Shown: positions 34,497 through 39,082 of the stretch, in pieces | How the letters are laid out: every line of letters begins with the position of its first letter | Numbering within the stretch: position 1 is the first letter of the stretch | NCBI GenBank assembly: GCA_002862745.1 | Contig: PKDX01000002.1 | Location: 12,707 to 76,706 of the forward strand | Origin: Bacteroidota bacterium | GTDB taxonomy: Bacteria > Bacteroidota > Bacteroidia > Chitinophagales > UBA8649 | Direction: 5' to 3' | Length of the DNA stretch: 64,000 nt | Made by a program: the position numbers and the translations under genes | Notes under the pieces: generated by a model | The model's database searches: none | What the model saw: only the letters and a program-made list of their open reading frames with translations | Told to the model about the DNA's origin: nothing

Positions 34497-35219
34497 ATGC
34501 GCTTATTCCTTTGGGTTTTCCTACTGAGTAGTTTGATATCGAATGCAAAGGGTCAACATACATCTCCGTATACTTTTCGTAACTCTACTGAAATTGCTAT
34601 ACCCGTTGTAGGACTCGGTACAGCAGGCCTTTCCTATTATTTTCATCGCAACAAGCCAACGCTGACTGAAGAAAACATAGCCAATCTAACGATATCAGAT
34701 ATCAATGCCTTCGATCGAAGGGCAGTCTATCAATGGCGACCTAAATCCGCTCATCTCTCTGATGCCTTGATGTTTACCGCCATCGCAAGCCCTTTACTCC
34801 TCATGTCCAGCCAAAAGATTCGTAGGGATTGGGAAAAACCAACCGTACTCGGAGTGGAAGTCTTTTTTTTGAATTTGGGGCTAACAGGACTAATCAAAGA
34901 ACTTGTCCAAAGACCGCGTCCCTATGTTTATAATCCCGATGTACCCATGTCCTTGAAGACTTCGAGAGATGCCACTACTTCGATGTATTCGGGTCACACC
35001 TCGACTGCTGCCTCCATGTCCATGTTTAGTGCAATGACCCTTCAACATTATCATAAGGGAGCTAAATGGATGCCCTTAGTTTGGACGTCCGCTGTTATTC
35101 TGCCCCTGGGAACAGGAATTCTTAGGTACCGAGCAGGAAAACACTTTTGGAGCGATATAATCACAGGGTATGTTGCAGGAAGTCTAACAGGACTACTTGT
35201 CCCCGTCCTTCATCAATGA
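34497..35219 (+). CDS. PAP2-family phosphatase
   Basis: KELVQRPRP, SMYSGHTS, RYRAGKHFWSD. Confidence 0.88.
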   Translation: MRLFLWVFLLSSLISNAKGQHTSPYTFRNSTEIAIPVVGLGTAGLSYYFHRNKPTLTEENIANLTISDINAFDRRAVYQWRPKSAHLSDALMFTAIASPLLLMSSQKIRRDWEKPTVLGVEVFFLNLGLTGLIKELVQRPRPYVYNPDVPMSLKTSRDATTSMYSGHTSTAASMSMFSAMTLQHYHKGAKWMPLVWTSAVILPLGTGILRYRAGKHFWSDIITGYVAGSLTGLLVPVLHQ

Positions 35220-36428
35220 GGTATAACTTAGCAAGTTCGATTTATACTTGTACATGATTAATCCCATCCCTCCTAGAATCATACCTATAGAGATGATCTG
35301 AGCTTGCGACAAACCCAATGTGCTTGCAGTAGAGGTCACCCGAATACCTTCGATCAAAAAACGCTCAACACCAGCAAATATCAAAAAGCCAGCAAATAGT
35401 ATCCCTGGTTTATGGGTAAGCTTTTTTCTGAGAAAAAACAACATAAGAAATCCTCCTAGAAAAAGGAAAAACTCATAGATGCTTGTGGGATAGACACCTG
35501 CTGAAAGCTCATAGCAGTATTGACCCGTGCACCCTGAAATGGGCTCTCCCGCATTGATTACATTGTGCGCGTAAGTATTTGACCACCAAGATTCAGGAAT
35601 CCAGCTGGGCCTTGGGTTGAGATTAACAATTCCCCAATCACCATCACCGGAAAAGTGACACCCTAGACGGCCTATTCCTTGAGCAAGTAAGAAACTCAAT
35701 CCAAGCGCATCAAATAAATGGGCAATATGAATTTTGCGACGGTAGGCAAAAATCAATATAGCAAGGCCACCAAAAATCAACCCACCATAAACTGTCAGGC
35801 CACTGACAAATAAAGCGGGATTGCTCAGTAGATCACCCATGTTCTGAAAAAAGTCTTGGATACGATCTGGTTGTAAAAAATCAAAAATCTTAGCCCCAAG
35901 GATACCAAAAATTGCGGCGATAACAACCATCTCTCCTATTTGCTCATGAGGCATATAGTCCACCCATCGTCGCTCGGGCTTCGGCAACTCCTCCTTCTTA
36001 GCTTTTCGATAGGCAGGAAAGATAGATAACGCCATAGCAAGTATACCGCCCAATAAACTTCCCTCGCTACTTTGCAAATAGGCCATCTGATCAATGGATG
36101 CTTGGTCCATATTGGTAAACGCACCAATAATCTTATATCCAAAGAAAAAAGAGATTGCTCCATTAATCAACAGTTGAGTCCAATTGGGACCTGTGCCCAC
36201 CACAATTTCCCGAGGATGACCAATGAGTAGCTTCAACTCCTCGCGACGCTTTAGTTCTTGACGAAGAACAAGGGCGGCCAAAAGGAAAGCCATAGCGACA
36301 AAAAAGCCGTAGGTGTTGGGAAACATACTTGGGAAGGGCTCACCATCTCGAAACATCTCAGACAGAAAAGGTAACTTATCATTGATAAAGTCAAAAACGG
36401 TGGGGTAAGCACGTAAAATCATAACCAT
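35193..36428 (-). CDS. lgt: Prolipoprotein diacylglyceryl transferase (long form)
   Basis: TYGFFVA, GLTVYGGLIFG, GIGRLGCHFSGDGDWG, YPTSIYE, ERFLIEGIR. Confidence 0.9.
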   Translation of the reverse strand: MVMILRAYPTVFDFINDKLPFLSEMFRDGEPFPSMFPNTYGFFVAMAFLLAALVLRQELKRREELKLLIGHPREIVVGTGPNWTQLLINGAISFFFGYKIIGAFTNMDQASIDQMAYLQSSEGSLLGGILAMALSIFPAYRKAKKEELPKPERRWVDYMPHEQIGEMVVIAAIFGILGAKIFDFLQPDRIQDFFQNMGDLLSNPALFVSGLTVYGGLIFGGLAILIFAYRRKIHIAHLFDALGLSFLLAQGIGRLGCHFSGDGDWGIVNLNPRPSWIPESWWSNTYAHNVINAGEPISGCTGQYCYELSAGVYPTSIYEFFLFLGGFLMLFFLRKKLTHKPGILFAGFLIFAGVERFLIEGIRVTSTASTLGLSQAQIISIGMILGGMGLIMYKYKSNLLSYTSLMKDGDK

Positions 36429-36438
36429 AAATCCAAGA

Positions 36439-37758
36439 TTATAGTGGCCTGTTTATTGAATATACGCCTTCTTCTTCATGATATTGATTGAGGGCTACAG
36501 ATGTTATCCCCCCAAAATTAAGCTCTTCACGTCTGGCACGAACACGAATATAATTTGATGTGTAACCGTACATCCAATCATCTTTCGCATCCCCTTCTTC
36601 CCACAGAACAGGGAAAGTATGATTCTCCTGTTCACGATAGAATTGTTTAGTAAGACGATCCGAGATATTCCTTAAGATGTAGTTGCGTTCACGTCGCTTC
36701 TGAACAGGAACAGGATCAGCTAGCTGAGGGGCTCTCGTATTCTGTCGCTCACTATAGGTAAACACGTGGAGATAGCTAACCTGTAAGTCTTGCAAAAAGG
36801 AGGCGGTACGTTGAATGTCTTCATCCGTCTCTCCTGGGAAACCAACGATGACATCAACACCAATACAAGCATTCGGCATGACCGCTTTTATATGCTCTAC
36901 TCTACTGCGATATAGTGCGGTATCATATTTCCGACGCATAGCGCGTAAAAGGCGGTCGACACCCGTTTGCAAGGGAATATGAAAGTGAGGCATGAATTTC
37001 TTGGACGATGCAACAAAATCGATAATTTCATCAGTCAAAAGGTTGGGTTCAATGCTAGAAATGCGAAACCGCTCAACACCCTCTAAATCGTCCAATGCGA
37101 CAATTAAATCATGGAAATTCTCACTACCTCGCTGGCGTCCATCTTCCGAACGGCCAAAATCACCAATATTTACACCGGTTAATACAATTTCTTTAGCCCC
37201 TGATTCAATGGCTTTATGTGCCGTCTGTAGCACCTTATCTATTGAAGTGCTTCTCGAACGGCCTCTTGCAAGAGGAATAGTACAAAACGTACAGTGGTAA
37301 TCACAACCATCTTGAACTTTTAAAAAGGTACGTGTTCGATCATTTTGAGAGAAAGCTGGATCAAATCGATTTACTTCTTTAATGGATTCAACCTCTACAG
37401 AATTTGCATCAGCATCCGCCGCCATAATGGCTTCGACATCAAACTTAGCATTAGCACCCAACACAAGGTTTACTCCAGGAATTGAGGCTATGGCCTCCGG
37501 CTTCAACTGAGCATAACATCCTATGACTACTACCTTAGCTTCCGCATTATTTCGTTTAGCCTGGCGGACTAAATTTCGACACTTTTTATCAGCTTGCGCA
37601 GTGACAGAGCAAGTGTTGATTATGTAGCAATCCGAAGGCTGTGCAAAGTCCACCCGCATCCACCCTTGCTGCTCCAACTGCTGACCAATTGAAGATCCTT
37701 CCGCATAATTTAGTTTGCAGCCAAGTGTCTGTAGAGCAAAGGTTTGCGAGCGTCCCAT
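36439..37758 (-). CDS. mtaB: tRNA (N6-threonylcarbamoyladenosine(37)-C2)-methylthiotransferase
   Basis: TLGCKLNYAE, INTCSVT..ADKKCR, KVQDGCDYHCTFC, RFRISSIEP; ATG at 37758 follows a TATTTTTG -7 box. Confidence 0.93.
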   Translation of the reverse strand: MGRSQTFALQTLGCKLNYAEGSSIGQQLEQQGWMRVDFAQPSDCYIINTCSVTAQADKKCRNLVRQAKRNNAEAKVVVIGCYAQLKPEAIASIPGVNLVLGANAKFDVEAIMAADADANSVEVESIKEVNRFDPAFSQNDRTRTFLKVQDGCDYHCTFCTIPLARGRSRSTSIDKVLQTAHKAIESGAKEIVLTGVNIGDFGRSEDGRQRGSENFHDLIVALDDLEGVERFRISSIEPNLLTDEIIDFVASSKKFMPHFHIPLQTGVDRLLRAMRRKYDTALYRSRVEHIKAVMPNACIGVDVIVGFPGETDEDIQRTASFLQDLQVSYLHVFTYSERQNTRAPQLADPVPVQKRRERNYILRNISDRLTKQFYREQENHTFPVLWEEGDAKDDWMYGYTSNYIRVRARREELNFGGITSVALNQYHEEEGVYSINRPL

Positions 37759-37763
37759 GAATA

Positions 37764-37771
37764 CAAAAATA
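37764..37771 (-). promoter_or_regulatory. -7 promoter element TATTTTTG for mtaB-lgt
   Basis: Exact TAnnTTTG on the minus strand immediately upstream of the ATG. Confidence 0.6.
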
Positions 37772-37846
37772 CGGGATGTGGAAGAACCTTTTGGGACTGA
37801 ATACACAACGAAATCAACCATCTTAACAAAATGTTAGTGACTTCGC

Positions 37847-37877
37847 TTTGAATTACTCAAGTACCCGTTTATATTTA
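37847..37877 (+). promoter_or_regulatory. Primary-sigma promoter for the small lipoprotein gene (TTTG-N19-TATATTTA)
   Basis: TTTG at 37847-37850, TATATTTA at 37870-37877, 19-nt spacer. Confidence 0.65.
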
Positions 37878-37906
37878 GGTCATTCTTAAATAATTAAAAT
37901 TTTATC

Positions 37907-38044
37907 ATGAAAAAGTTTTTACCAATTTTACTAGCAGGTTTTGTAGCAATCACTGTTGTTGCTTGTGGTGGCGAAGAAGAAGCTGCTGATGGAGAAGAAG
38001 CTACAGAAGCACCTGCTGAAGAAGAAAGCGCTGAAGAGGAGTAA
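37907..38044 (+). CDS. 45-aa polyacidic lipoprotein, missing from the ORF track
   Basis: MKKFLPILLAGFVAITVVA-CGGEEEAADGEEATEAPAEEESAEEE*; basic n-region, h-region, lipobox VVAC; own promoter and terminator. Confidence 0.85.
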   Translation: MKKFLPILLAGFVAITVVACGGEEEAADGEEATEAPAEEESAEEE

Positions 38045-38071: not shown

Positions 38072-38099
38072 AGCCGAGGATATTCCTCGGCTTTTTTTT
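38072..38099 (+). terminator. Intrinsic terminator
   Basis: AGCCGAGGA-TAT-TCCTCGGCT followed by a T-tract. Confidence 0.88.
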
Positions 38100-38142
38100 G
38101 CCCTTATGTCAGATAGACAAGAGTTTTGGCACAGACATTGAA
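38099..38142 (+). promoter_or_regulatory. Sigma54-type promoter (TGGCAC-N5-TTGA) with upstream TGCCC-TTA-TGTCAG element, before yceI
   Basis: TGGCACAGACATTGAA at 38127-38142 (GG-N10-GA); element at 38099-38112. Confidence 0.55.
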
Positions 38143-38785: not shown

Positions 38786-39082
38786 TTAATCTTCTAATCG
38801 ATAGCCGAGGGAACGAATAGAATGGATGGTTATGGAAGCGTCTTGCTTCAAATGATTTCTCAATCTATTGATGTATACATCCATACTTCGTCCAGCAAAG
38901 TAGTCCGTTTGGGACCAGATTTTTTGCAATACTGCCTCCCTTGTTACGATATCATTTTTGTGTTCCAGCAAGAACTCGAACAAAGCGGCTTCCCTTGGAG
39001 TAAGCTTGATCCCTTCTTTATCCTTGATAAACAAAGTTCGCTGCTCAATCACGTAAGTTGACTGACCTATTTGGAAAGACAT
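38786..39082 (-). CDS. Stand-alone OmpR/PhoB-type winged-helix DNA-binding domain
   Basis: LTPREAALFEFL, VTREAVLQKIW, RSMDVYINRLR, IRSLGYRL; no receiver domain, and upstream in-frame stops close the ORF. Confidence 0.85.
   Translation of the reverse strand: MSFQIGQSTYVIEQRTLFIKDKEGIKLTPREAALFEFLLEHKNDIVTREAVLQKIWSQTDYFAGRSMDVYINRLRNHLKQDASITIHSIRSLGYRLED

Follow-up and report, generated by a model that had tools for sequence, protein, structure and literature searches.

Between the mtaB and yceI genes of the window (the whole 64-kb stretch of DNA that was analysed) lies a short open reading frame predicted to encode a lipoprotein precursor of 45 residues, preceded by a candidate promoter and followed by an intrinsic terminator (Table 1). 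The product has the charged n-region, the h-region of 7-22 residues and the lipobox ([LVI][ASTVI][GAS]C) used as criteria for lipoproteins, its n-region being MKK, followed by the 15-residue hydrophobic core FLPILLAGFVAITVV and then VVA/C. Twelve of the 26 residues of the mature chain are Glu and one is Asp, giving a net side-chain charge of -13, with the remainder consisting of Ala, Gly, Thr, Ser, Pro and Cys and including no basic, aromatic or aliphatic-hydrophobic residue. As the mature peptide has neither Lys nor Arg, tryptic proteomics is blind to it. An AlphaFold2 model built from a 19-sequence alignment consisted of a helix at residues 4-20 (pLDDT about 83) followed by coil (pLDDT about 50), with no folded domain in the mature part, and a Pfam search of the 45-residue product returned zero matches. 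A regex scan of the 2.06-Mb genome for a second small ORF of the same type found none.

Table 1. Positions in the window of the mini-lipoprotein gene, its signals and neighbouring features
Feature	Position	Strand	Description
lgt	35193-36428		PF01790, 132.7 bits
Palindrome	37824-37836		TAACAAAATGTTA, in the divergent promoter region
Promoter	37847-37877	+	-33 TTTG (37847-37850), 19-nt spacer, -7 TATATTTA (37870-37877)
Predicted 5' UTR	37884-37906	+	A/U-rich, without Shine-Dalgarno sequence; position inferred from the -7 box
Mini-lipoprotein ORF	37907-38044	+	ATG to TAA, 45 codons, precursor MKKFLPILLAGFVAITVVACGGEEEAADGEEATEAPAEEESAEEE
Signal peptide II	37907-37963	+	MKKFLPILLAGFVAITVVA, residues 1-19
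Codon of Cys20	37964-37966		lipobox V-V-A-C
Mature chain	37964-38041	+	CGGEEEAADGEEATEAPAEEESAEEE: Cys20, conserved start GGEEEAA, variable polyacidic tail
Synthetic counterpart of the mature lipopeptide			Pam3Cys-GGEEEAADGEEATEAPAEEESAEEE
Stop codon TAA	38042-38044	+	read from sequence
Intrinsic terminator	38072-38100	+	9-bp stem (38072-38092), 3-nt loop, T8
Element upstream of yceI	38127-38142		TGGCAC-N5-TTGAA, sigma-54-like -24/-12, 53 nt upstream of the yceI start
OmpR-type wHTH gene	38786-39082		98-residue product

These features match a first-pass annotation of the locus, which had described a 45-residue lipoprotein with a VVAC lipobox and a polyanionic mature form of 26 residues containing 12 Glu and 1 Asp, each point of which was recovered exactly. 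Its statement that the peptide has no folded domain is likewise borne out by the predicted coil beyond the signal-peptide helix. The description of the gene as unannotated held for the exact product, which was not among the 15 billion proteins of a collection, consistent with a missing gene call at the locus, but not for the orthologue P0017, which is entered as a 'hypothetical protein' in NCBI MAG records. A likeness in GAA and GCT codon usage to groEL stood as regards its direction, which is that of the groESL bias, but is weakly supported at such tiny counts (GAA in 10 of 12 and GCT in six of nine cases, with GCC and GCG not used).

The promoter, TTTG-N19-TATATTTA, matches the Bacteroidota -33/-7 pattern, and a sigma-70-style scan marks the same promoter as TTGAAT-16-TATATT. 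Both boxes are retained in seven of eight aligned relatives, with divergence in the spacer, whilst in the remaining relative, the metagenomic copy SRR283, the -7 box is changed. The terminator stem begins 27 nt past the stop codon, contains six GC pairs and has a predicted free energy of -17.9 kcal/mol (z = -4.2); it too is conserved in seven of eight relatives, including a compensatory A-U/G-C swap at the top pair. These data agree with the proposal of a monocistronic gene with a consensus-spaced promoter and a strong terminator. The stretch corresponding to the predicted 5' UTR is highly conserved among relatives. An RNA element as the source of this 5' nucleotide conservation was considered and rejected, since there was no Rfam match and RNA structure across a stretch comprising the 5' UTR and the opening 84 nt of the ORF was not significant (z = -0.43).

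Lack of a transcript had been named as a ground for refutation; words of the 221-nt gene region were present in 17 RNA-labelled runs. In the libraries of three metatranscriptome studies, RNA contigs of 160-270 nt span relatives' copies and little else nearby, contaminating DNA being possible, and their size fits the approximately 215-nt transcript predicted from promoter to terminator. The gene is transcribed in relatives. Contig depth is a poor gauge of expression, and the depth of the gene contig was 8.6-10.6 in one study, two to four times the value for the other genes of a 20-kb stretch, but average in another (2.3-3.2 vs 2-17). Nothing was found in RNA run X21, taken from a sample that also yielded a DNA source containing the gene.

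The gene order mtaB (leftward), mini-lipoprotein ORF (rightward), yceI (rightward), wHTH (leftward) was observed in all six species-level genomes of the genus, which are marine Chitinophagales/Saprospirales MAGs of about 2 Mb from uncultured organisms. The same order was present on two further metagenome contigs with flanks read, one of them a 39-kb Tara contig, and the suggested mtaB/yceI synteny was thus unchanged wherever flanks were read. MtaB is a TIGR01579 equivalog (396 bits vs a cut-off of 357) encoded divergently from the ORF by a gene paired with lgt, and yceI, in the same orientation as the ORF, encodes a product with a signal peptidase I-type signal. The presence of a small peptide beside a radical-SAM protein raised the idea of a RiPP, which was rejected as MtaB is a bona fide equivalog; it is also disfavoured by presence of the mtaB-lgt pair in sister genera lacking the peptide. 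The start of mtaB is probably Met22 (37758, in the stretch 37758-37821), because relatives align only from about residue 19-26, and the palindrome would then belong to the promoter or leader of mtaB. The palindrome core, CAAAATGTT, is invariant in all eight relatives and its arms differ in three of them. The element upstream of yceI takes the form TGGCA(C/T)-N5-TTG(A/G)A in each of the eight aligned relatives. The wHTH protein lacks a receiver domain in the genus, its syntenic counterpart in a sister genus (L053-L059) being a full-length response regulator of 228-234 residues.

In a sister genus a gene for a 186-residue EGF-like Cys-rich lipoprotein stands where this genus has the mini-lipoprotein and yceI genes. 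It has the same position and orientation beside mtaB, and the start of its product, MKK(L/F)(I/L)P, is similar to that of the mini-lipoprotein. Orthology of the two could not be established as the intergenic DNA was not alignable. YceI was rejected as kin of the 186-residue protein, to which it shows no similarity, and a distant homologue of this protein is encoded at another place in G000 (contig C7). The mini-lipoprotein gene may have originated as a remnant of a longer lipoprotein gene, an origin that is compatible with a present function.

Searching 5.8 billion proteins by words identified 22 variants of the product, and when 1.84 billion representatives were searched exhaustively with a profile, only three matches fell below 1e-10, the others being signal-peptide look-alikes. 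Apparent homologues beyond the genus, in Chryseobacterium, Mogibacterium and metagenome fragments, were rejected on this ground, and no homologue was found in three sister genera of the family. As judged from these searches the gene is limited to one genus, which argues against a general envelope role. A divergent copy of 35 residues on a Logan contig (SRR28326237_144444; L073 352-459), the SRR283 copy mentioned above, has Arg and Lys in its tail, and its terminator has a stem with two mismatches and three G-U pairs and an interrupted T-run. This copy may represent decay of the gene in one lineage, in which case the gene would be dispensable at least there.

To judge from its pattern of variation, the gene comprises a nearly invariant 5' part and a tail variable in length and sequence. 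Five of the six genus genomes agree at every one of residues 1-25, which cover the signal peptide and CGGEEE, and the sixth (G001) carries Glu24Gly; the signal peptide itself (residues 1-19) is identical in all six and in 16 of 19 aligned variants. Across the first 25 codons pN was 0 (0.017 in pairs with G001) and pS 0.06-0.28, compared with a pN of 0.04-0.23 and a pS of 0.3-0.8 in neighbouring genes; identities among the same genomes are 83-96% for MtaB and 66-93% for YceI. The Cys and lipobox are retained in 22 of 22 database variants and eight of eight genomic copies, so that the proposed check of lipobox conservation does not count against the gene. The tail varies in length and sequence, precursors among relatives ranging from 35 to 56 residues, and contains lineage-specific repeats such as (GAGEE)4 in G005 and (EEAPTGD)2 in TARA653. 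Despite many indels its reading frame is preserved, and in 19 variants 512 of 517 tail residues belong to the set E/D/A/G/T/S/P, with five falling outside it. About 44% of random single-base nonsynonymous changes would be expected to produce a basic, hydrophobic or Gln/Asn residue or a stop, and the compositional constraint is supported at P about 5e-8 from at least 53 inferred changes. Maintenance of the frame together with a restricted composition indicates that the frame is read and that selection acts on the composition of the tail and not on its sequence. By these measures the gene is real, translated and under selection.

At the nucleotide level the 75 nt coding for the signal peptide are in the top 1.2% of the most conserved 75-nt windows in the 64-kb window, alongside tRNA genes and a few of the best-conserved coding stretches. 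Their pS in comparison with genome G002 was 0.057, below that of every whole gene (the lowest being groES at 0.21). The first 25 codons of genes are, however, generally low in pS (medians 0.36 and 0.25), and with this control the small gene was the lowest of 43 in comparison with G002 but at the 45th percentile with G004. The idea that an exceptional synonymous constraint reflects very high expression was consequently weakened, the gene being ordinary among 5' gene ends in the G004 comparison.

One match from the profile search, the 116-residue P0023 from two independent Tara Oceans assemblies, carries the same signal peptide followed by an acidic linker (three copies of EEVSEEAPVA) in-frame with the Cys-containing domain of a tandem lipoprotein family present on contig C10. 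The DNA shared with the window (L116 102-299, corresponding to 37828-38025; 84% overall) starts 79 nt upstream of the ATG, and thus includes the promoter and 5' UTR, and is bordered on both sides by C10-type sequence. A fusion of this type was found in none of the six reference genomes. Its occurrence in the Tara contigs indicates that promoter, signal peptide and acidic linker form a portable module and that the acidic part can tether a folded domain; the 45-residue gene, in these terms, most likely specifies an acidic tether without cargo. The Tara sequence (L116 1-642; L117) is a natural recombinant with a 5' stub of a C10:68583-type gene just upstream. The tandem small lipoproteins of C10:67572-68759, in the window's own genome, and of G001:C81 have a common Cys-containing domain (...YCECTL.KVM..SP.P.D), and the 59-residue ORF at C10:68583 is truncated by the contig end. 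This family is located at contig ends, which points to a repeat region where assemblies break.

The genome encodes both enzymes expected for lipoprotein maturation, with the Lgt gene near the ORF and an LspA gene on contig C31 (PF01252, 116.7 bits). In Capnocytophaga the acidic signal for lipoprotein export to the Bacteroidota cell surface takes the form C-X-K-(D/E)2-X, and its Bacteroides and Flavobacterium counterparts are SDDDD or SDDFE; the acidic residues must be preceded by one that is polar or basic (K, Q or S), and AADDA-type variants retain partial surface exposure (PMC5080379). The groups in which this signal has been demonstrated are Flavobacteriia and Bacteroidia only and do not include Chitinophagales. 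The Glu residues at +4, +5 and +6 of CGGEEE agree with the defined signal, whereas Gly-Gly at +2/+3 departs from K/Q/S. The single SusD encoded per genome in the genus has the mature start CEKLVETES, unlike CGGEEE, and such proteins are too few to derive a lineage signal. Among approximately 50 plausible lipoproteins of the same genome several begin CGEDDGG(G/S)TTPP, CGDDD, CKKDD or CQDD, indicating that an acidic stretch right after the Cys is common in this genome.

The top NCBIfam match of the product was NF050142 (PG1828 family), at 28.5 bits vs a cut-off of 50 and mostly over the signal peptide; scores of 33.5 bits for the best relative (P0021) and 26.4 bits in a genome scan also fell short of this cut-off. 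When 301 Bacteroidota genomes were scanned with this model and 30 loci read, the loci were found to encode stand-alone precursors of 54-112 residues, composed of a signal peptide, Cys and a low-complexity repeat tail of A/V/D/S/T/E/P, with some in tandem arrays. Within one genus the signal peptides of such genes are near-identical and the tails variable, and Chlorobiaceae carry (EEAAPA)n mini-lipoprotein versions. Neighbours common to the PG1828-like genes were sought and this line was dropped, there being none either with the window gene or among themselves. Arrays of at least three PG1828-like genes lie at G215:C3:289995-290800, G295:C1:1441258-1442141 and G056:C96:6670-7494 and C94:29781-30274, which suggests paralogue families with variable tails. 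PG1828 of Porphyromonas gingivalis is triacylated by experiment and co-purifies with LPS (PMC11225709, PMC13466725, PMC10126205), of which it is the TLR2-active contaminant (PMC11225709, PMC13466725, PMC5693985, PMC10126205).

The window gene and the PG1828 family are alike as stand-alone Bacteroidota genes for precursors of about 45-110 residues, with a domainless, net-acidic, low-complexity tail and a signal peptide much better conserved than that tail. They differ in genomic neighbours and in the tail itself, PG1828-like tails being rich in Ala, Val, Asp, Ser and Thr and usually containing some Lys, whereas the window tail is 50% acidic, lacks hydrophobic and basic residues and has about half the length. 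Across the window family acidic residues make up 43-50%, and hydrophobic residues 0-6%, of a mature chain of 26-37 residues with a net charge per residue of -0.43 to -0.50; the corresponding values for PG1828-like loci are 13-26% acidic, 0-21% hydrophobic, 34-92 residues and -0.03 to -0.26. By length and composition the window family ranks as the shortest, with about double the acidity, and is the most extreme member of a 'tail-only' mini-lipoprotein class typified by PG1828.

Other known systems resemble the product in more limited respects. With the acidic export signals and tethers of Bacteroidota surface lipoproteins (Lauber et al. 2016, PMC5080379; Lpt/LptZ route, PMC13692018) it has in common acidic residues at +4 to +6, and it differs in having no cargo, Gly-Gly in place of K/Q/S and an acidic run throughout. 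Escherichia coli Lpp and LptM (YifL) and Helicobacter pylori HP0135, the last with a 44-residue precursor and a partly disordered mature form of 28 residues (PMC11768039), are likewise tiny genus- or family-restricted mature lipoproteins. These three act in outer-membrane organisation and have no sequence similarity to the window product, and the LptM model NF047847 scored 15.7 bits vs a cut-off of 27.7, over residues 1-21 only. What is conserved in them is a helical trimer plus C-terminal Lys, an N-terminal motif or the C-terminus, whereas here, beyond the first approximately eight mature residues, it is composition only. The Vlp, Vsa and Vsp lipoproteins of Mycoplasma combine an invariant signal peptide and lipobox with a charged repeat tail whose length changes by gain and loss of repeats. 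The design is similar to that of the repeat-bearing tails of G005 and TARA653, but the gene described here is single copy with no phase-variation switch seen, belongs to another phylum and shows no homology, and its length differences are seen between species.

Overall, these data are in our judgement probably best explained by a selected gene whose product is a cargo-less acidic tether placed in the outer leaflet and acting as an electrostatic or steric brush. General lipoprotein biology would have the 45-residue precursor exported post-translationally, since it is no longer than about the ribosomal tunnel plus targeting window. Cys20 would then be acylated by the Lgt encoded nearby, the signal peptide cleaved by LspA and the lipopeptide moved from the inner to the outer membrane, the product being a lipid anchor bearing a disordered polyanion of 25 residues with approximately one negative charge per two residues. 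More tentatively, the lipopeptide could be flipped to the outer leaflet via the Bacteroidota acidic-signal route, where it might supply the LPS layer with fixed negative charge and with binding of divalent cations, in the manner of an electrostatic or steric brush. As selection is seen only on the signal peptide plus CGGEEEAA and on the composition of the tail, the tail most likely acts by physical chemistry and not via a fold or an interface. The first-pass interpretation is partly supported: the peptide could be abundant and surface-exposed, and the suggested functions as anionic coat, cation chelator or decoy would be speculation. A bolder version, in which the peptide is a major, ribosomally made, lipid-anchored polyelectrolyte forming an outer-leaflet 'brush' for charge and divalent cations in streamlined planktonic Bacteroidota, seems to us unlikely. 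If this bolder version is true, the PG1828-like class, which escapes tryptic proteomics, would be an envelope component that has gone unnoticed in the phylum, comparable in function to teichoic acids or capsule more than to ordinary proteins.

The same lipopeptide could instead face the periplasm, in the inner leaflet of the outer membrane or in the inner membrane, either as a polyanionic cation or Donnan buffer or as an LptM-like machine subunit acting through its lipidated N-terminus. Such a location would fit a mature start that has no K, Q or S of the defined export signal and does not resemble that of SusD, and would fit also the invariance of only the first approximately eight mature residues, LptM likewise functioning through its lipidated N-terminus. 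The LptM match that could be cited in support is under its cut-off and confined to the signal peptide, however, and the acidic +4 to +6 residues constitute the export-signal core, with the AADDA-type variants remaining partly surface-exposed; nor, except for the yceI synteny, is there a conserved partner gene. We consider a periplasmic orientation to be rather unlikely. It is quite improbable that the gene is an evolutionary leftover with little function, either the 5' module of a longer lipoprotein gene or a P0023-like gene duplicated in part. The longer lipoprotein gene with a similar start at the same site in the sister genus, the same module heading a domain-bearing protein on the two Tara contigs and the SRR283 lineage with its shorter, less acidic tail and degraded terminator are all compatible with such an origin, but a leftover would have decayed. 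Instead, purifying selection is evident on the signal peptide and tail composition beside neighbours that are near synonymous saturation, and promoter and terminator are kept in seven of eight relatives.

Two further possibilities dispense with a functional lipoprotein. A small ORF followed by a hairpin with a T-run and a co-oriented gene, a layout common to all relatives, might be a cis-regulatory leader peptide responding to Glu-tRNA, Mg2+ or lipoprotein-export stress and controlling read-through into yceI, and nascent chains that are acidic or contain proline can destabilise ribosomes. Nevertheless, 27 nt separate the stop codon from the stem, the terminator hairpin is the sole structure predicted, with no conserved alternative (antiterminator) pairing, and the ORF tail and the stop-to-stem stretch vary freely. 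In addition, past the terminator there is a conserved sigma-54-like -24/-12 element belonging to yceI itself, a leader would not need an invariant, fully functional lipobox, and the acidic run begins at residue 23, by which point the nascent chain has filled the exit tunnel. A filled tunnel is reported to counteract ribosome destabilisation in a preprint (bioRxiv 10.1101/2021.02.02.429294). A leader peptide is accordingly regarded as highly improbable, and the chance that the locus gives only a small RNA, or is a chance ORF with no protein, as close to negligible. Several frames of the GAA/GCT low-complexity DNA are open, one of them giving an antisense ORF of 53 residues, and three of the 22 database variants have frameshifted tails, but the pN of the signal peptide is far under its pS, the tail frame and composition are maintained, and there is neither an Rfam match nor a stable structure.

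What is new here, on the comparison with PG1828-like loci, is an extreme variant of a widespread and barely studied tail-only lipoprotein class. Mini-lipoproteins comprising an anchor and a disordered tail are mostly overlooked, in annotation as 'hypothetical' and in proteomics, even though one of them, PG1828, is prominent in LPS preparations of P. gingivalis. The window gene would represent a tail-only lipoprotein in minimal natural form, with approximately 26 mature residues, half of them acidic, and its composition under selection. It also gives access to the acidic stretch that follows the Cys in Bacteroidota lipoproteins, a stretch that could be a sorting signal, a spacer or a charge carrier. 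With the gene confined to one uncultured genus, the stakes are moderate. Elsewhere in the same genome, products with N-termini that on reading resemble ribosomal proteins L17, S16 and L25 (C6:57942, C7:9132 and C2:114266) carry long acidic C-terminal tails of E/A/P, indicating that such low-complexity tracts are not confined to envelope proteins.
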